Sequence record: PX880100.1
Length of the DNA stretch: 64,000 bases
From: a phage
Reading direction: 5' to 3' (one strand)
Notes under the pieces: generated by a model
What the model saw: only the letters and a program-made list of their open reading frames with translations
What the model was told of the DNA's origin: nothing
Databases searched by the model: none
Shown: in pieces, positions 38,023 through 50,024 of the stretch
Numbering within the stretch: the first letter of the stretch is position 1
How the letters are laid out: each line of letters opens with the position of its first letter
Program-made: the position numbers and the translations under genes

Positions 38023-38790
38023 TTATTCAGCAGCCGCAGCTTTTGCATCCAGTTTAGCACGCTTAGCGGCACCATCATAGTCCTTAGCAACCAGACCGCG
38101 ACGAGACAGCATAGATTTAACACCGCGCTCAGACTTACCAGTTTTCTCAGCGATCTCAGCAACAGTCATGTTAACCAGATCCAGACCTTCTAACAGATCT
38201 TCACGAGTTTTAGCACTTGAAGTTTCCTGTACCGGCATAGCAGCGATACGACCTTCACGAAGTAGGCTCAGAGCTTTACCACGGATCTGCTTGATATTAC
38301 GACCGAAGTGAGCAGCGATAGCTTCAATAGTAGCACCAGCAACAACCTGATTAACAAAATCAGTTTCTTCATCCGGAGTGAAGGAACGAACAGCAGCAGC
38401 TTTTTCAGTTGGCTTAACAGAAGCGGTCATTTCCAGACTCAGGATCTTACCCTGTACCTGTTTAGCACCGAACTGACCACCAGCTACAGCAGCAGCGATT
38501 TCAGCATAGGTATACTGACCAGCATGAGCGTTCAGGAAATCAACCAGTTCAGCTTCCTGCTCAGGAGTCCACGGGGATTTCTGCACTTCGTTAGCTTTTT
38601 GTACTTCAAAACCTTCTTTACGCAGTTTAGAGCCAACAGAGCGAGCAGTAACATCTTTGCCAGTTTCAGCAGCCAGTTCAGCAGCAATAGCAGCTACTTG
38701 TTCTTGAGAGATTACAGAAACACCCAGAGCAGTGGCTTTTGCTTTCAGAGACTCGGTTACACCTTCTACGTTCCAGTTCAGTTTAGACAT
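38023..38790 (-). CDS. putative DNA-binding protein with repeated helix-rich modules (255 aa, T5 D5 position)
   Basis: Three to four repeats of a ~30 aa Ala/Lys-rich module (e.g. MTVAEIAEKTGKSERGVKSMLSRRGL); host-optimised codon usage; a related module occurs in ORF 41699-42109. Confidence 0.4.
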   Translation of the reverse strand: MSKLNWNVEGVTESLKAKATALGVSVISQEQVAAIAAELAAETGKDVTARSVGSKLRKEGFEVQKANEVQKSPWTPEQEAELVDFLNAHAGQYTYAEIAAAVAGGQFGAKQVQGKILSLEMTASVKPTEKAAAVRSFTPDEETDFVNQVVAGATIEAIAAHFGRNIKQIRGKALSLLREGRIAAMPVQETSSAKTREDLLEGLDLVNMTVAEIAEKTGKSERGVKSMLSRRGLVAKDYDGAAKRAKLDAKAAAAE

Positions 38791-39553
38791 TATTATTTTT
38801 CTCCAATAGTTCTTTAATCGACAGGATTTCTATCCCATTCGTTTCGGCTTTCTTATAAGATGAGGAAGAACGTTTTGATTCATCCTCACAGATTAGGTAT
38901 TTGACGTCTTTGGTAACGGATTTCTTAACCGTATATCCTAGACCTTCTAAATAGTTTGTTGCATCCGTTCGATTTGCAAAATCTTGCAAAGATCCGGTAA
39001 TACATACCGCGATTCCATTTGGCTGGGCAACTAAATCATCAGTAACGACGGTTTTAGCTTTAGCACCAGTTGAGAATTTCCACGGTAGTTCGATAACATC
39101 CTTGCCTTGTGGGGAATTTAGCCAGGCTTTATAATTTTCTCCAGCCTTGCCGTCAGCCTTCACATCGTGGAAGCTAGTGCAATTTTGGGATAATTTCTTT
39201 GCTGCAACCTCTCCAATTAGAGGGATTCCTAAAGAACCGAGAACTGAACCAAAGTCAATGTCTCCGCGAACTTTAGTATTTAATTCGCTAATTAACTTAG
39301 CGGCAACCTTGCTACCCACGGCTCTAACCAAATCTTCTTCGGTTAGGTAAAATAGTTCTGAAATCTTCGTCAGCTCCAGCTTCTCAATAGTTTTCGGGCC
39401 AAAGCCCTTTAACTTCATTTTTGTACAGAAGTTCTCAATTAACTTACTTGATTGCGCTGAACAGTTGGACTTATTACGACAGAATAATTGTCCGTTGACA
39501 AGATCTAGCTTAGAACCACAAGAGGGACATTGTGTTGGAATTTCGATTTTCAT
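38783..39553 (-). CDS. ligB: NAD-dependent DNA ligase, C-terminal subunit (Zn finger, HhH, BRCT-like)
   Basis: CPSCGSKLDLVNGQLFCRN zinc-finger motif followed by helix-hairpin-helix-like region; start moved to ATG 39553 with RBS AAGGAAG. Confidence 0.75.
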   Translation of the reverse strand: MKIEIPTQCPSCGSKLDLVNGQLFCRNKSNCSAQSSKLIENFCTKMKLKGFGPKTIEKLELTKISELFYLTEEDLVRAVGSKVAAKLISELNTKVRGDIDFGSVLGSLGIPLIGEVAAKKLSQNCTSFHDVKADGKAGENYKAWLNSPQGKDVIELPWKFSTGAKAKTVVTDDLVAQPNGIAVCITGSLQDFANRTDATNYLEGLGYTVKKSVTKDVKYLICEDESKRSSSSYKKAETNGIEILSIKELLEKNNNV

Positions 39554-39583
39554 CAAATTTCTTCCTTATCAATTTATATAGAT

Positions 39584-39612
39584 ATTATAGCAAGTATTTA
39601 AGCATTTAGCAA
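39584..39612 (-). promoter_or_regulatory. sigma70-type promoter between the two ligase genes
   Basis: Minus strand: TTGCTA, 17-bp spacer, TATAAT. Confidence 0.55.
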
Positions 39613-39676
39613 CTACAATTTTAACTAACTTTGCTTACCCTCGCCATAACTTTCTATCCCTCAACTGAATGATAAT

Positions 39677-39705
39677 AGTATATACCTAAGCGGCGAAAAT
39701 GTCAA
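39677..39705 (-). promoter_or_regulatory. second promoter between the two ligase genes
   Basis: Minus strand: TTGACA, 17-bp spacer, TATACT. Confidence 0.45.
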
Positions 39706-39755
39706 TAACCACTTTATAATTCCGATATGGTAGATGGGTAGCAAAGGGTTATGTA

Positions 39756-40730
39756 TTAATCGTATACTCGTTCTACTATGCATGGGATTACACCACCAGC
39801 ACGAATCACTCGAATCTGGCAACCGATCTCTAGATCAAGAGAGTTAATATAATCAACGTTATTAAGAGTCGCTTTAACAATTGTAGCATCATCAATAATT
39901 ACTGGTTCAAAATAACCTACTGGAGTTACTTTACCAGAAGCCCCTACCTGCCATTCAACTTTAGTAAGAGTTGTAATCTCGCCTTCTTCATCCTCTTTAA
40001 TGGCGAATGCTCCACGAGGGAATTTATTAGTCCAGCCTTCACGGAAGAATTTGTTGTTGTCATTAATACGAACAACTTTACCGTCCGTCGGAATCCATTT
40101 AAAAAAGGAACGCACATTAACAACTGTTAAGAAGTTCTCATTCTCTAGCCAAAGCATATCTTTTAAATATGCTTCTGTAATACCTACAGATTCAGCAGAA
40201 CACTGGATACCGTATGCAACGAAGATTAAGCCACCTTCCCCGATACGTTGTACGAAATCATCGCTATCTTTGAGGTTAATAGCACCAGAGGCAAAGTTAC
40301 GTTTATTTTCTACTTCTTTTGTAATTAGAACTTCACCAGTGATTTGAGTAGGTACTTTTTGGGAAATCTTTTTAGGGATGTTCAGCAATCTTACGTTGCT
40401 TGTGACATCATTTCCCAGAATACCGTTACCACGAGTTAATGCTTGAACAAATTCACCGTTAATATATAATAGAGAAATTGCACAACCATCTAACTTATCT
40501 GTTTCTACCTGACCTAAAGGATTAAATGGTGGTTTATCCCCACGATTATAATAAACTTTCTGTAAAGAATACATACGGTACAGATGTGGAATATCACCCT
40601 TAGGCCCGATCTCTTCTTCTAATGGGAAGCGTTTTACCAGGCAATCATACTCCTCATCAGAGATTAAAGACATGCCTTGATAATATGCTTCTTGACAACG
40701 CTTAATAAAGCCTTTTACATTATTCATCAT
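39756..40730 (-). CDS. ligA: NAD-dependent DNA ligase, N-terminal adenylation subunit (324 aa)
   Basis: KxDG adenylation motif (ETDKLDGCAISLLY) and OB-fold region; separate ORF from the C-terminal subunit, with about 200 bp of promoter-containing spacer between them. Confidence 0.8.
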   Translation of the reverse strand: MMNNVKGFIKRCQEAYYQGMSLISDEEYDCLVKRFPLEEEIGPKGDIPHLYRMYSLQKVYYNRGDKPPFNPLGQVETDKLDGCAISLLYINGEFVQALTRGNGILGNDVTSNVRLLNIPKKISQKVPTQITGEVLITKEVENKRNFASGAINLKDSDDFVQRIGEGGLIFVAYGIQCSAESVGITEAYLKDMLWLENENFLTVVNVRSFFKWIPTDGKVVRINDNNKFFREGWTNKFPRGAFAIKEDEEGEITTLTKVEWQVGASGKVTPVGYFEPVIIDDATIVKATLNNVDYINSLDLEIGCQIRVIRAGGVIPCIVERVYD

Positions 40731-46236: not shown

Positions 46237-46735
46237 AACAATACTCCTGTGTTGGAAATGAAATAAGTTTTCTTTAGGACTATTCAGAAAGAATAGAACA
46301 ACTGTTACTGTCAATTTCTCAACAAATTAATTGCAAATACTGAAGTGGGGTGGCAACTTCCACTTTCACGCTACACTGCCGCTTCACTATACCGCACAAA
46401 TCCTTGAGGATGGCCGCTAAGCCAGATTTGCTCACCTAATGCTTCATGTACTAGCTCATACTAGATGTAGTATACCTTACGTCATCACTTCTCAGAGTTT
46501 TTCACTCTTCCCGTCTCACTTCACAACCACCTCACACTAGGTTGCTTCGAGGCCTTACCAGGGTTCCTACGGGATGTAGATCGCTAAGTATTCTATTAAT
46601 TATTTGTTTAAAAACCAACACGTAACAGTTAAAACAACCCTTAATGGGGCAGCCTAACTGTTCCGTATCGCGGATTGTAAACAAGAAAAATTAGCAAAAT
46701 CAATTTTTACTAATGTCTCTCGATTCAATATAAAT
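46237..46735 (-). other. long ORF-free 5' leader / intergenic region upstream of the large helicase gene
   Basis: About 500 nt between the promoter at 46736-46764 and the helicase start contain only 2-3 codon ORFs and are GC-richer than flanking DNA, with purine-rich GTGA/AGTGA repeats on the transcribed strand. Confidence 0.5.
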
Positions 46736-46764
46736 ATTATATCAAGATTTTGGGCATCCTGCAA
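46736..46764 (-). promoter_or_regulatory. sigma70-type promoter
   Basis: Minus strand: TTGCAG, 17-bp spacer, TATAAT, with AAAATTTT upstream. Confidence 0.5.
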
Positions 46765-46803
46765 GTAAAATTTTCCGGATGGTGCTATCATTGGTCTTGA
46801 GTA

Positions 46804-46831
46804 CGAGTAAAACCGAGCCAAAATGACTCGG
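46804..46831 (-). terminator. terminator-like hairpin after the Sir2/HAD operon
   Basis: Minus strand: stem CCGAG/CTCGG with 9-nt loop followed by TTTTACTCG; short stem, weak. Confidence 0.35.
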
Positions 46832-46840
46832 TTATGTAGA

Positions 46841-47038
46841 TTAGACACTTAAAATACTTCTAATCTCTTCTATATACTTATCTACTTTTTTAGCATCTAC
46901 TTTACTTAGTTTTCCTATGTCAAAATCAGGATCAGTAAACATTCTAGCTATCTCTATCTCTAGAGACTTACTAATTTTCCCTGTAGTATTCCACTTAGAA
47001 ATCTTACCTTTTATCTTCCAAAATTCCTTATTCATCAT
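46841..47038 (-). CDS. hypothetical protein (65 aa)
   Basis: Last ORF of the operon; Lys-rich; ATGATG start at 47038 overlaps the end of the frameshifted paralogue. Confidence 0.35.
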   Translation of the reverse strand: MMNKEFWKIKGKISKWNTTGKISKSLEIEIARMFTDPDFDIGKLSKVDAKKVDKYIEEIRSILSV

Positions 47039-47421
47039 TTAACCCCGGAACATATATCCCAACACGGTTTAATTGTTCTTTAGCTTCTTTGAGAATATCT
47101 GGAGTGTACTCCCAAATATCATCTTCCACCTGTAAAAAAATGGGGCGAACAACCATCATCCGGCACACGACATATGGCCAAACAACGTGGATGGAACAAA
47201 GAGAAATTTAGGGCAACAATTAAACCCATAGCAGACAATTCATTCCAATCCAATTCCCATTCCCCGGCGTATCCAGACAGGAAAACGCCAATGCATGGAT
47301 CATCTATTTGCTGCTCAGGAAAAGTGAAAGAGACTTGTCTTACCCCCAACCAACGTTGTAGCAGCTTCTCCGCACGTTTCACCAAACTAGGATCAATCTG
47401 ACGCCAATATACTTGTTCCAT
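47028..47421 (-). pseudogene. frameshifted paralogue of ORF 47431-47859 (frame change at an A7/T7 run at 47134-47140)
   Basis: Track ORF 47119-47421 aligns with the neighbouring paralogue only up to SPHFF, then stops; the homologous C-terminus (LQVEDDIWEYTPDILKEAKEQLNRVGIYVPGLNDE vs FQVNERYGWSYSPEEVNDGIQKLRRFGYMIPGLTA) continues in another frame from the homopolymer run to 47028. Confidence 0.55.
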
Positions 47422-47430
47422 TCTGCCTCC

Positions 47431-47859
47431 TTAAGCAGTTAAACCTGGGATCATATACCCGAAACGGCGAAGTTTTTGGATACCATCATTCACTTCTTCT
47501 GGTGAGTAAGACCAACCATAACGTTCATTAACCTGAAAACCAGGAGATTCACTAGTTTTATAGTTAACAACGAGGCGATGCTTAGCAGACATAAACAGCT
47601 TATAGTTTAACGCAAAAACTAAGCCCATTTCATCTAACTCTTTCCAGCCGACAATCTCTTCAAGGCCCTCTTCTACCTGAACAATTAAACCAATACAGGG
47701 GGCCTCATCAATATCATCTTTAAAAGCAAAGGAGATTTCGTTATTCTCACACCATATTTTCAAGGAGTTAATAGCCTCATTATACAGGCTAGCCGGGAGA
47801 GTACGCCAAAAGTTAACCAAAATTGGGTTAGCTTCTTTAGAGAAGACATTATTAAACAT
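47431..47859 (-). CDS. hypothetical protein (142 aa), intact paralogue
   Basis: Shares the central motif PCIG(L/V).....(V/S)GWKELDEMGL(V/I)(F/V)ALN with the frameshifted neighbour. Confidence 0.45.
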   Translation of the reverse strand: MFNNVFSKEANPILVNFWRTLPASLYNEAINSLKIWCENNEISFAFKDDIDEAPCIGLIVQVEEGLEEIVGWKELDEMGLVFALNYKLFMSAKHRLVVNYKTSESPGFQVNERYGWSYSPEEVNDGIQKLRRFGYMIPGLTA

Positions 47860-47861
47860 AT

Positions 47862-48374
47862 TTACACCTTAAATTGTTGTAGGGCTTTACACATTTCAAG
47901 ATCTGGACTAAATTCTAACATATAGCTAACAGCTTTTAAATCCTGAAGATTTATCCCGGTCCTACCGTTGACTATAACCGTTGGATACTGATACATCATA
48001 GCACCCCCATCATCAAGCACACACCAATGTTTGAGCTTATGCTTTTCAACGAAGCGAAGAACAGAATTACCCCTAGATAATCCACCCCCAGTAAAATCCG
48101 TTGTACCAAGAAAACGATCGATAAGACCTAATCCGGTCATAATCTGAACGTTCTCCATCTCATTTCTGACAGAGAACCAAGATGATACTCCAACAATCAT
48201 TATCGGAGAAGGACGAATAAAGTCCTGAAAAGCCTTGAGAAGCGGTTTGAAAACCCAGTCACTTCCAAAGAAAATCTTTTCATCATCAGGTGCATGATGG
48301 TGGGAGATGCTTGAATTGAGCACCCCATCAATGTCCAGAAAAATAATTGGAGTATTACTTATTTCCTGACACAT
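47862..48374 (-). CDS. HAD-superfamily phosphatase-like protein (170 aa)
   Basis: HAD motif I FLDIDGVLN near the N-terminus and motif IV-like CVLDDGG; substrate not inferable. Confidence 0.5.
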   Translation of the reverse strand: MCQEISNTPIIFLDIDGVLNSSISHHHAPDDEKIFFGSDWVFKPLLKAFQDFIRPSPIMIVGVSSWFSVRNEMENVQIMTGLGLIDRFLGTTDFTGGGLSRGNSVLRFVEKHKLKHWCVLDDGGAMMYQYPTVIVNGRTGINLQDLKAVSYMLEFSPDLEMCKALQQFKV

Positions 48375-49170
48375 GAGGTCTACCCCCTAAATGAGCTTCT
48401 ACACGAGCAATAAAATCAGGATCACTGAAAGCATCTACCGCACCTTTACTCCAGTAAGGGATACCGCGTTCTTCCAGCTGGTACATCTCACTACGAGTCA
48501 TACCTTGATAGCCAGGTTCCGCCGCTAGGGCACTATCATAGTAGTTAACAACCATTAGCTTGGCAGCAGTCAAATTAAGAACAGGAAATAGTTCCCAGTA
48601 GAAGTTAATTACTTGGTTAGAGCAACCAACCACAATGATCATATCTTGACTGGTAATACCATCAAAAACATTGTACATTTCCGCATATGCTGGAGCATGC
48701 TCTCCAAAGAAGATTACATTAGGTTTAACCCATTTATAATCATCTGGATCAATAGAATTGTATCCTACATCAATAATCCGTTTATTGCTACTATTGTAGC
48801 TATCAGCTACAACAACCTCTTTTAAATATCCGTGAATGTGCAGAATGTCACTATGTGGAACGCCAGCACGCTCAATAAGGTCATCAACGTTGGTAGTCAA
48901 GTTTACTACTTGACCTGGATATTGTTTATACCATTCACCAATACGCAAATGCGCAAGATTGGGTTCAACAGTTTTTAGCTCTTCACGACGCCTGTTGTAA
49001 AACATATGGGTTTTATGATAAAAATTACCACGAAAGGCATGAATATTGCATACCTCTTCTAAGTCATAATCATCCCACAATGCTTTACCACTAGCAGTAT
49101 CAGTACGGAAGGCTCGTACACCGCTTTCAACACTCAAACCTGCACCGCTAATAACAATTAATCTACGCAT
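48355..49170 (-). CDS. Sir2 (sirtuin)-family NAD-dependent protein, Zn-ribbon-less (271 aa)
   Basis: Sirtuin signature blocks: GAGLSVESGVRAFR (GAGIS-ESGIP-FR), TTNVDDLIERAG (TQNID-LH-RAG), catalytic HIHG, VKPNVIFFGE, IVVGCS; no CxxC...CxxC zinc module. Confidence 0.65.
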   Translation of the reverse strand: MRRLIVISGAGLSVESGVRAFRTDTASGKALWDDYDLEEVCNIHAFRGNFYHKTHMFYNRRREELKTVEPNLAHLRIGEWYKQYPGQVVNLTTNVDDLIERAGVPHSDILHIHGYLKEVVVADSYNSSNKRIIDVGYNSIDPDDYKWVKPNVIFFGEHAPAYAEMYNVFDGITSQDMIIVVGCSNQVINFYWELFPVLNLTAAKLMVVNYYDSALAAEPGYQGMTRSEMYQLEERGIPYWSKGAVDAFSDPDFIARVEAHLGGRPHVSGNK

Positions 49171-49384
49171 TTTTCACCTGTTCTCTGAAGTTTTGCCCAA
49201 TACTGTCTAATAGCTCAGCTAATTCTTTATTGCCTTTCTCCATTAAGGTATTAGCAATAACTTCTAGCATAGTAGCGCAGGATTCAATACCATCCTTATA
49301 GCCAGTTTCCCAGTGCTGCATTAATGCGTTTTCCAAAGCGGCGTTTAAACCCTTATCTGGTAGCATCGGCTTCGAGAATGCCAT
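49163..49384 (-). CDS. hypothetical protein (73 aa)
   Basis: Co-oriented small ORF in the operon, ATG at 49384. Confidence 0.3.
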   Translation of the reverse strand: MAFSKPMLPDKGLNAALENALMQHWETGYKDGIESCATMLEVIANTLMEKGNKELAELLDSIGQNFREQVKNA

Positions 49385-49559
49385 AAAGTTTCTCCTCTAG
49401 TTCCATAACACGATTTTCATAAGAGGCACGCAACTTTTCAATTGCCAGCGCACGCACTGTAACCTCATTAGAATTAATAGCTAACTGGGCCAGATCTTCT
49501 GTTTCCATACGTCCGTTGTAAATTAAGCGATATTTAAGGTGCTTCACATTCTTAGTCAT
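49353..49559 (-). CDS. hypothetical protein (68 aa)
   Basis: Start moved to ATG 49559 (MTKNVKHLKY) with GGAG 7 nt upstream; track start is TTG. Confidence 0.3.
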   Translation of the reverse strand: MTKNVKHLKYRLIYNGRMETEDLAQLAINSNEVTVRALAIEKLRASYENRVMELEEKLYGILEADATR

Positions 49560-49932
49560 TATTAAACTCCACTGCAACTGTTTCTAGGTCTTCATCAGAA
49601 AAACTAGAGTATATATCTTTAAGATACTGTTTAATACTCCAAGTAATATCTTCATACCCATTGGGGCTACGTTGGTATACTTTTAACACTCTATTATACA
49701 CAAATTCAAGATTACATTTTACTTCATCTCTGTCTTCATCAAACAAGCAATATGGGTTATAAGGCGATACATCTAGATTTGTTCCTACCCAATCGCCAAT
49801 AATGGTAGGGTATGCAACACCCTCTATACGCGAGTAATCACCTGTGGCAGCAAAGACAGCCTCCGCAATATCATCCACACCCAGATGGAAACTACCACAT
49901 GTAGATTCAACTATATAAGGCTTTAATTTCAT
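49552..49932 (-). CDS. hypothetical protein (126 aa), first gene of the Sir2/HAD operon
   Basis: ATG at 49932 preceded by RBS GAGAGGAG and the PN25-type promoter at 49961-49989. Confidence 0.4.
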   Translation of the reverse strand: MKLKPYIVESTCGSFHLGVDDIAEAVFAATGDYSRIEGVAYPTIIGDWVGTNLDVSPYNPYCLFDEDRDEVKCNLEFVYNRVLKVYQRSPNGYEDITWSIKQYLKDIYSSFSDEDLETVAVEFNND

Positions 49933-49960
49933 ATTTTTCTCCTCTCAAATTTATAAATCT

Positions 49961-49989
49961 ATTATATATAAATTTTTGGCTGAAAGCAA
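49961..49989 (-). promoter_or_regulatory. strong sigma70 promoter (PN25-type)
   Basis: Minus strand: TTGCTT, 17-bp spacer, TATAAT, then AGATTTATAAATTTGAGAGGAG leader. Confidence 0.65.
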
Positions 49990-50024
49990 ATAAAATAAAA
50001 GCCAGGTCGACTAGCAACCCGGCT
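49990..50024 (-). terminator. terminator-like hairpin after nrdD
   Basis: Minus strand: imperfect 7-bp stem AGCCGGG/CCTGGCT followed by TTTTATTTTATTT. Confidence 0.45.

Follow-up and report, generated by a model that had tools for sequence, protein, structure and literature searches.

A Zn-less sirtuin and a HAD phosphatase side by side in an early operon of T5-like phages: a possible NAD+-dependent module for phosphorylated RNA ends

Introduction

What might a lytic phage do with a sirtuin that lacks the zinc ribbon and is encoded side by side with a small HAD phosphatase? The question is raised by an operon of eight minus-strand genes (positions 46841-49989) in a 64,000-nucleotide stretch of phage DNA, sequence record PX880100.1, which we call the window throughout. 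An original prediction, made from the letters of the window without database searches, had placed these genes behind one early promoter and had proposed that the sirtuin (Sir2) and the phosphatase manipulate host NAD and ADP-ribose pools or protect the phage against NAD-depleting defences. Here we describe a computational analysis that followed up this proposal. Our favoured explanation, to which we give a probability of roughly 0.35, is that the two proteins form an NAD+-dependent module acting on phosphorylated RNA ends and on the ADP-ribose phosphates that arise as by-products. The substrates of both enzymes, their coupling and the biological role are what we infer.

The operon is a conserved early cluster of T5-like phages, ordinary for that group, and it has been annotated and described before; both the association of Sir2 with HAD and a specific mechanistic hypothesis for it were already published in 2022. 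The stretch at 46500-50100 matches 450 phage records, which puts the locus far beyond chance. The best matches, about 96% identical, are Tequintaviruses such as HK6, NBSal005 and Lindwurm, and by these matches the source phage is itself a Tequintavirus. Judged by gene order and protein identity, the locus is the ortholog of T5.100-T5.107 in phage T5 (NC_005859).

A Zn-less sirtuin clade with class III features

The sirtuin, ortholog of T5.102, scored 88.2 bits against the profile PF02146 (cut-off 24), with its residues 9-187 covering profile positions 1-178 of 180. It keeps the motifs GAGLS (9-13), F21-R22, Y58-x-x-R61, TTNVD (92-96), H113, FFGE (154-157), GCS (182-184) and N209. Among 18 diverse clade members G9-A10-G11, S13, F21-R22, Y58, R61-R62, N94, D96, H113, F154-F155, E157, G182, S184 and N209 are invariant, and the NAD-binding and catalytic motifs were found in 115-119 of 120 sirtuin homologs. 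Because these residues do not vary, the protein should bind NAD+ and carry out sirtuin chemistry. FYxxRR, which includes the class III anion-recognition Y-x-x-R known from SIRT5 and CobB, occurs in all but one of the 120 homologs. The canonical TQNxD was found in none of them; TTNVD, in which Thr replaces Gln, stands in 117.

The zinc ribbon is missing. No Cys occurs in the 45-residue segment between H113 and FFGE, where the Cys positions of CobB face Ala or a gap, and the same segment has at most one Cys in 107 of 108 homologs. We conclude from these alignments that the clade is catalytically equipped, Zn-less and class-III-like, in agreement with the original prediction of intact NAD-binding and catalytic blocks without a zinc ribbon. 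The clade is compact, has so far appeared only on phage-sized contigs, and is 41-98% identical to the window protein.

The closest solved structure, and the best sequence match, is CobB of Escherichia coli (1s5p, E 1e-17). The phage protein shares with CobB and SIRT5 the Rossmann NAD-binding motifs, the catalytic His, FGE and Y-x-x-R. It differs from CobB in having no Cys4 zinc module, in the change from TQNxD to TTNVD, in its restriction so far to phage-sized contigs and in its scores against deacylase models, the only NCBIfam matches: NF001753 gave 100.6 (cut-off 243) and NF040867 gave 90.3 (cut-off 320). Scores below half of the cut-offs indicate that the sirtuin is not a CobB equivalog.

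Defence-associated SIR2 NADases (ThsA, DSR1/2, SIR2-HerA/Nezha and SIR2-APAZ) also use NAD+ and have no classical zinc ribbon, and a likeness to them had been suggested for the window protein. Our searches spoke against this likeness. PF02146 was the only Pfam match, SIR2_2 gave none at E 1 or better, and no PADLOC defence family matched at E 0.01 or better. Sensor or partner domains, a feature of the defence NADases, are missing from the phage protein, which stands alone at 271 amino acids (aa). Its neighbours are the HAD, DUF7415 genes and small open reading frames (ORFs), and the lytic phage from which it comes has its own need for NAD+. The two-subunit NAD+-dependent DNA ligase of this phage lies at 38786-40727, about 8 kb from the operon, and reliance on this enzyme would make an unregulated NADase self-harming.

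A HAD phosphatase of an RNA-repair-associated family

The neighbouring gene, ortholog of T5.105, overlaps the Sir2 stop by 20 nucleotides (nt) in the window. Its product scored 71.9 bits against PF18143 (HAD_SAK_2; cut-off 27.5), with residues 10-145 covering profile positions 1-138 of 139, and it has the four HAD motifs: I, D14-x-D16 (DxDGVLN); II, S64; III, R101; and IV, D121-D122. In 24-25 HAD homologs, down to 27% identity, no variation was seen at D14, D16, S64, R101 or D121, and D122 is conserved in at least 90%. The name HAD_SAK_2 derives from the setting of the family in multidomain RNA-repair 'Swiss army knife' proteins.

Searches of the PDB with the HAD sequence, as a single sequence and as a profile, found no relative. 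An AlphaFold2 (AF2) model was predicted with pLDDT 95.8, and its top PDB fold matches are HAD phosphatases. The best of these is the capless MDP-1 (1u7p), itself a weak match (prob 0.99, E 4.5e-3, TM 0.53); T4 PNKP (2ia5, TM 0.39) and mammalian PNKP were also matched, both more weakly than MDP-1. Capless HADs tend toward macromolecular or bulky substrates, which is no more than suggestive for this protein. Pfam profiles recognised Sir2, HAD and the two DUF7415 proteins, and the phosphatase-like character that the original prediction gave to the gene next to Sir2 was upheld.

Many RefSeq and GenBank records label orthologs of this HAD 'Sir2 (NAD-dependent deacetylase)', which gives rise to 'Sir2 (x2)' labels. 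The source of this label is phrog_18062, and given the motifs above we regard it as a mis-annotation. The T5 record itself carries the label 'Sir2 (NAD-dependent deacetylase)' on T5.102.

Partners of the sirtuin and the HAD in other phages

To describe the neighbourhoods we took a census of 57 viral loci encoding the sirtuin clade, which were searched with the window proteins and with partners seen elsewhere. Sir2 and HAD are paired in 28 of these loci, namely all 23 close T5-likes, one further locus (L041) and four T5-like contigs from IMG/VR (L051-L054), with the HAD lying 0.6-1.2 kb downstream of Sir2. The HAD is followed by both DUF7415 genes in every one of the 28 except L041, where one was detected. 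The pairing is also kept, in the reversed order HAD, 101-aa gene, Sir2, in a distant T5-like contig (L006). In the four IMG/VR contigs the Sir2 is 51-52% identical to that of the window, whereas the adjacent HAD is 90% and the DUF7415 proteins are 65-75% identical; this contrast indicates mosaic replacement of the sirtuin allele, which the pairing outlived.

Eleven of the 57 loci are V5-like. Their sirtuins are 48-64% identical to the window protein and stand in a cluster of an Rnl1-type RNA ligase, an AAA_33 kinase, Sir2 and a ligase, with a Metallophos gene upstream of the cluster and a cREC gene detected in 8 of the 11. In most of these loci Adps/Namat-like (NARP1-like) genes lie 5-7 kb from the sirtuin, the distances in V5-like loci spanning 2.5-7 kb. 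In locus L067 a Nampt-like gene lies 1.6 kb from the sirtuin. In about 10 of the 57 loci none of the census partners was found.

A relative of the HAD occurs in Serratia phage ChuuTotoro (ON287369; locus L068, 38595-39104). This HAD_SAK_2 protein is 38% identical to the window HAD and its gene overlaps the start of Adps by 4 nt; no Sir2 was found in the ChuuTotoro genome. The same operon of HAD, Adps (Prs-like) and Namat (Nampt-like) is present in Kashira (ON287374) and ABPH49 (MH533020), all within one Vequintavirinae lineage.

The window and the complete genome of the T5-like phage Kenya-K33 (OQ291056), which has 22 tRNAs, were searched by tblastn at E 1e-2 or better, that is, at BLAST-level sensitivity. 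Neither had a match for Rnl1, two other RNA ligases, the AAA_33 kinase, cREC, Metallophos, Adps or Namat, and polynucleotide kinase, 2H-like, NADAR and NrdG proteins were not detectable in Kenya-K33.

Escherichia phage ECO340P2 (OP172792, 152 kb) encodes a member of the sirtuin clade with neither HAD nor RNA-repair partners; some 4 kb upstream of it there is a sponge gene of the Acb2/Tad1-hairpin type (locus L005, 2940-3215). Three genes were considered as divergent partners and ruled out: a 161-aa ECO340P2 gene is not a HAD, a 187-aa Ro1 gene before Adps encodes a winged helix-turn-helix (wHTH)-like protein and not a HAD, and a 262-aa Pm5461 gene before HAD is not a Sir2.

The transcription unit and its flanks

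The eight ORFs are tightly packed, neighbours either overlapping or being separated by at most 10 nt. They are bracketed by a promoter and two terminator hairpins (Table 1), and the eight co-oriented genes and the single PN25-type promoter of the original prediction were both recovered at the coordinates it gave.

Table 1. Features of the early operon and its boundaries in the window, in the order of transcription
Feature	Coordinates	Strand	Basis
Intrinsic terminator of upstream nrdD, 5' boundary of the unit	50000..50024	-	Terminator scan; fold -15.4 kcal/mol, z -4.0
Early sigma-70 promoter, T5 PN25 type	49961..49989	-	Direct reading and orthology with T5
126-aa protein, T5.100 ortholog, phrog_11748	49552..49932	-	PHROG E 1e-71; 92% identical to T5.100
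Small protein, T5.101 ortholog, phrog_5236	49353..49577	-	74-aa ORF, likely 68 aa from ATG at 49559
73-aa protein, phrog_5827	49163..49384	-	ORF and PHROG match
Zn-less sirtuin, 271 aa, T5.102 ortholog	48355..49170	-	PF02146, E 8.5e-25
Small HAD phosphatase, HAD_SAK_2, 170 aa, T5.105 ortholog	47862..48374	-	PF18143, E 8.8e-20
DUF7415 paralog 1, 142 aa, T5.106 ortholog	47431..47859	-	PF24187
DUF7415 paralog 2, T5.107 ortholog, split into 100-aa and 46-aa ORFs	47028..47421	-	PF24187
65-aa basic protein, phrog_29527, isoelectric point 9.5	46841..47038	-	ORF and PHROG match
Terminator-like hairpin closing the unit, 10-bp stem then UUAC	46811..46833	-	Fold -13.5 kcal/mol, z -3.8

On the minus strand, the promoter reads TTGCTT at -35 (49989-49984), a 17-nt spacer and TATAAT at -10 (49966-49961), and is followed by the ribosome-binding site GAGAGGAG and the first ATG. 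It is almost base-for-base the promoter annotated 5' of T5.100, and it also aligns with Lindwurm. Its -35, -10 and downstream blocks are presumably those of PN25. A consensus promoter scanner did not report this site, since TTGCTT agrees with TTGACA at three of six positions, and the sites that it did report were no more numerous than in shuffled sequence. The scanner being uninformative, we based the promoter call on reading the sequence directly and on the orthologous promoter of T5. From this strong T5-type early promoter the unit is, on that reading, transcribed by the host sigma-70 RNA polymerase.

The hairpin of the nrdD terminator is strong and is followed by a U tract (UUUUAUUUUAU); this hairpin and the one that closes the unit are both much more stable than shuffled sequence. 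The hairpin that closes the unit was not found by the terminator scanner because its T tract is short; T5 and Lindwurm annotate terminators at positions equivalent to both hairpins. Between the closing hairpin and the gene for the origin-binding protein lies a gap of about 500 nt (46315-46810) with no convincing ORFs. It holds promoter-like sequences, and T5 annotates a promoter there; neither an Rfam match (best E 0.85) nor a tRNA was found in it. Rfam and tRNA scans of the operon region likewise gave no match.

As in T5, the locus is flanked by nrdD (anaerobic ribonucleotide reductase) on one side and by an origin-binding/primase-type gene on the other. The positions of promoter and terminators are common to both phages, the proteins are 92-99% identical, and the order nrdD, small ORFs, Sir2, HAD, two DUF7415 genes and origin-binding protein is the same. 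The window differs from T5 in lacking the small ORFs T5.103 and T5.104 between Sir2 and HAD, in having the additional 73-aa and 65-aa genes, and in the frameshift of its T5.107 ortholog.

The DUF7415 pair and the small ORFs

The original prediction had also noted a paralogous gene pair. Both members are DUF7415 proteins (120.9 and 107.3 bits against PF24187, cut-off 27) and are about 30% identical over their full length, so the paralogy stands; the second copy is not an intact gene. One extra T in a run of seven (47134-47140) splits it, where relatives have TCTTTT or an in-frame run of six T, as alignment with Lindwurm, HK6 and Cit2 indicated. In relatives the gene is intact and encodes 130 aa. 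The identical seven-T allele is present in Citrobacter phage Cit2 (OP745948), where other broken genes are annotated nearby. Programmed frameshifting at this run was considered and found no supporting evidence. Since the allele is shared with one other genome that has broken genes, a homopolymer error or a recent mutation is likelier. In the T5 CRISPRi-ART screen T5.107 is 'Fit' (p 0.02), one of only 17 such genes (PMC11879866), and the run may therefore be a homopolymer sequencing error and not a true pseudogene.

DUF7415 is a tiny family, with 32 representative clusters among 1.8 billion proteins. The sole informative fusion that we found, a 154-aa protein (P0210), joins an ASCH-like DUF3850 to the DUF7415 core. 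Two other long matches were rejected, one as a tandem-repeat assembly artefact (P0186) and the other as a spurious F5/8-type-C protein (P0208). In Klebsiella phage ValerieMcCarty01 (OR354875; locus L072, 3995-4237) an 80-aa ORF lies between nrdD and nrdG and overlaps both; it is annotated 'MazG-like' and is really a DUF7415 core (44 bits against the cut-off of 27). Several sampled T4-like Klebsiella phages have nrdD or nrdG annotated at the DUF7415 match. With DUF7415 between nrdD and nrdG in T4-like Klebsiella phages and downstream of nrdD in T5-likes, a link to the reductase is as plausible as a link to Sir2. Kenya-K33 encodes NrdD and no BLAST-detectable NrdG, so that its class III reductase would need a host activase or an unrecognised factor.

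All four small proteins of the operon match only PHROGs without assigned function. The 126-aa protein had no Pfam, NCBIfam or PADLOC match, and its gene is variable among relatives in the census. For the gene after it, relatives annotate 207 nt. Among the close T5-like loci, roughly half gave a match to the 73-aa protein at 90% identity or above, and T5 has no gene at this position. The 65-aa gene is found in HK6 and NBSal005, is absent from T5 and Lindwurm, and is sporadic in the census. T5 and most relatives have one or two ORFs of about 60 aa (phrog_5116; T5.103/T5.104, locus L071, 3744-4102) between Sir2 and HAD, and the window has none.

Discussion

Our favoured explanation can be set out as a sequence of steps. 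The sirtuin would bind NAD+, release nicotinamide and move ADP-ribose (ADPR) onto an anionic acceptor held by Tyr58 and Arg61. By analogy with KptA/Tpt1 the acceptor would be a 2'-phosphate on damaged RNA, and His113 would activate the 2''-OH, yielding ADP-ribose 1'',2''-cyclic phosphate and freeing the repaired RNA. The HAD would either strip terminal 2'/3' phosphates from the RNA beforehand or dephosphorylate ADP-ribose phosphate afterwards. Such a module would help a phage with about 22 tRNAs to tolerate host defences that cleave RNA. The DUF7415 pair and the small ORFs may serve something else.

Several lines of evidence favour this explanation. The partners of the V5-like sirtuins are RNA-repair enzymes, and the HAD family was defined in the RNA-repair 'Swiss army knife' proteins. 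The Sir2-HAD pairing has outlived both a reversal of gene order and a replacement of the sirtuin allele, and the two genes overlap by 20 nt. A phosphatase partner would imply that a substrate or a product carries phosphate, which is not the case in canonical deacylation. In addition, a related HAD overlaps the start of an Adps/Namat operon that handles ADP-ribose derivatives, and the intermediate of NARP1 is known to decay to ADPR cyclic phosphate. In the T5 CRISPRi-ART screen on a lab host, knock-downs of the sirtuin and the HAD, as of all genes from T5.100 to T5.106, were 'Not Fit' (PMC11879866, supplementary files 1 and 16), which fits a conditional, conflict-related role; the screen is insensitive here, for nrdA, nrdB, nrdD and T5.108 were also 'Not Fit'.

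Furthermore, the published prediction covers this same neighbourhood, and our explanation takes up its view of RNA-end processing and extends it with the idea of ADP-ribose phosphates. In a computational study, Iyer, Burroughs, Anantharaman and Aravind (2022; PMC9503650) described as type 3 the association of a sirtuin with a Swiss-army-knife HAD in 'Escherichia phage SP15', and proposed that the sirtuin removes RNA 2'-phosphates in a KptA-like manner while its partners prepare the RNA end or process ADPr>P. Their sirtuin clade and HAD family are those of the window, and SP15 is among the sources of our homologs. DUF7415, the HAD-less T5-likes and the HAD in a NARP1-like operon are not discussed in that paper.

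The chemistry proposed for the sirtuin would be that of KptA/Tpt1, in which a phosphate oxygen attacks C1'' of NAD+ and the 2''-OH then gives ADP-ribose 1'',2''-cyclic phosphate, and similar partners (RNA ligase, kinase and a cyclic phosphodiesterase-like protein) are found in the V5-like loci. The folds, however, are unrelated, an ADP-ribosyltransferase (ART) fold against the Rossmann fold of sirtuins, and for sirtuins this activity is a prediction only. T4 Pnkp with Rnl1 likewise places a HAD-fold phosphatase in a setting of phage RNA repair, and PNKP is among the fold matches of our HAD; that likeness reaches TM 0.39 only, a kinase domain is missing from the phage protein, and T5-likes gave no match for a ligase.

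Other observations weigh against a module for RNA ends. With no RNA ligase, kinase, cREC, 2H-like or Metallophos protein detected in Kenya-K33, the host would have to seal the ends, and the T4-type Rnl1 pathway needs no removal of a 2'-phosphate. The nearest solved fold of the HAD is MDP-1 rather than PNKP, by a weak match. Three T5-like lineages keep Sir2 and DUF7415 with no HAD found, and conversely T4-like Aeromonas and Proteus phages, like ChuuTotoro, have a HAD but no Sir2, so coupling is not obligatory. The small ORFs between Sir2 and HAD in T5 and most relatives weaken the case for translational coupling, and common descent may be all that lies behind the synteny within Demerecviridae. 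Both the sirtuin as a whole and the segment in place of its zinc ribbon are acidic, with no conserved basic patch; the RNA ligase and kinase of Ro1 are acidic too, so the acidity is not decisive, and we dropped the isoelectric point as a proxy for RNA binding since known RNA-repair partners are equally acidic. In our literature searches no experiments on T5.102, on T5.105 or on the phage sirtuin clade came to light.

How do other explanations compare? The sirtuin could be a lysine deacylase of the CobB/SIRT5 type, a deacetylase or desuccinylase that reprograms proteins of the host or the phage early in infection, for instance so that acyl-sensitive enzymes stay active, with the HAD and the other genes as unrelated neighbours. 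This is the standing database annotation, it agrees with the closest solved and curated relatives and with the preservation of every catalytic and NAD residue and of the desuccinylase Y-x-x-R, and some Sir2-bearing lineages do without a HAD. We nevertheless hold it to be rather doubtful. The Cys4 zinc module, which to our knowledge all characterised deacylase sirtuins need, is absent across the clade, scores fall far under the CobB cut-offs, Thr replaces the Gln of TQNxD in 117 of 120 homologs, and VxP after GxS, the peptide-binding motif of sirtuins, reads VINF. The recurrent neighbours, moreover, process RNA ends and phosphates and not protein modifications. If instead Sir2, HAD and DUF7415 shared no pathway, the operon would be a mosaic of independent early accessory genes with one promoter, a reading compatible with the others, in which DUF7415 may belong with the anaerobic ribonucleotide reductase next to it and not with Sir2 or HAD. 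Close relatives indeed differ in gene content on the upstream side of Sir2, in the interval from Sir2 to HAD and at the 3' end, each of the three families occurs elsewhere without the others, nrdD and nrdG of T4-like Klebsiella phages enclose a DUF7415-core ORF while nrdD lies upstream in T5-likes, and only T5.107 was 'Fit' in the T5 screen. A mosaic seems improbable to us, in view of a pairing kept through inversion and allele replacement, the overlap of the Sir2 and HAD genes in the window and a Sir2, HAD and DUF7415 core that is constant in 28 loci (with one DUF7415 in L041).

The pair might also act on small-molecule metabolites of NAD+ and ADP-ribose, either manipulating host pools or blunting defences that target NAD+. 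The sirtuin would then be an NAD+ glycohydrolase, a base-exchange enzyme or an ADP-ribosyltransferase, and the HAD could, for example, be a non-homologous analog of the Macro-domain protein Adpp that counters RES-type NAD+ phosphorolysis. NARP1 operons recruit an ADPR-1''P phosphatase, and the one that has been shown, Adpp, is a Macro domain (bioRxiv 10.64898/2026.01.28.702374). With their HAD, Adps and Namat genes, the ChuuTotoro-like phages parallel the arrangement of NARP1-AP (Adps, Adpp, Namat; Osterman et al. 2026 preprint), a HAD standing in place of the proven Macro-domain phosphatase. The original prediction had argued for a role of this kind, and our results lend it limited support: the HAD_SAK_2 gene runs 4 nt into Adps in three Sir2-less phages, NARP1-like genes lie near V5-like sirtuins and a Nampt-like gene near that of L067, and dispensability on a defence-poor lab host fits counter-defence. 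Other observations weigh against such a role. No Adps, Namat or NADAR was detected in T5-likes, so that ADP-ribose could not be rebuilt into NAD+, the recurrent immediate partners of the sirtuin clade elsewhere are RNA-repair enzymes, the ligase of the phage needs NAD+, the sirtuin does not resemble the SIR2 models of defence NADases, and the link between HAD and NARP1 comes from one phage lineage. We therefore regard action on small molecules as unlikely.

The KptA-like prediction, if true, would extend sirtuin chemistry to nucleic-acid phosphates, and phage RNA repair would gain an NAD+-consuming arm. Should the HAD turn out to dephosphorylate ADP-ribose phosphates, the contest over NAD+ in which NARP1 and RES defences take part would gain a new class of enzyme. 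It is quite unlikely, in our estimate, that both hold in a linked form, with the sirtuin as the first to use a phosphate acceptor (RNA 2'-phosphate or another phosphorylated ribose) and HAD_SAK_2 as a phosphatase of ADPR-1''-phosphate or cyclic phosphate, a non-homologous analog of Adpp, together linking RNA repair to ADP-ribose recycling; were it so, the operons of HAD, Adps and Namat would be a second phage route against RES-type NAD+ phosphorolysis. Of further value are three side observations, namely the HAD in a NARP1-like operon, DUF7415 beside nrdD and nrdG, and the frameshifted T5.107 ortholog. The sirtuin is carried by hundreds of T5-like and V5-like phages, several of which are therapy candidates.

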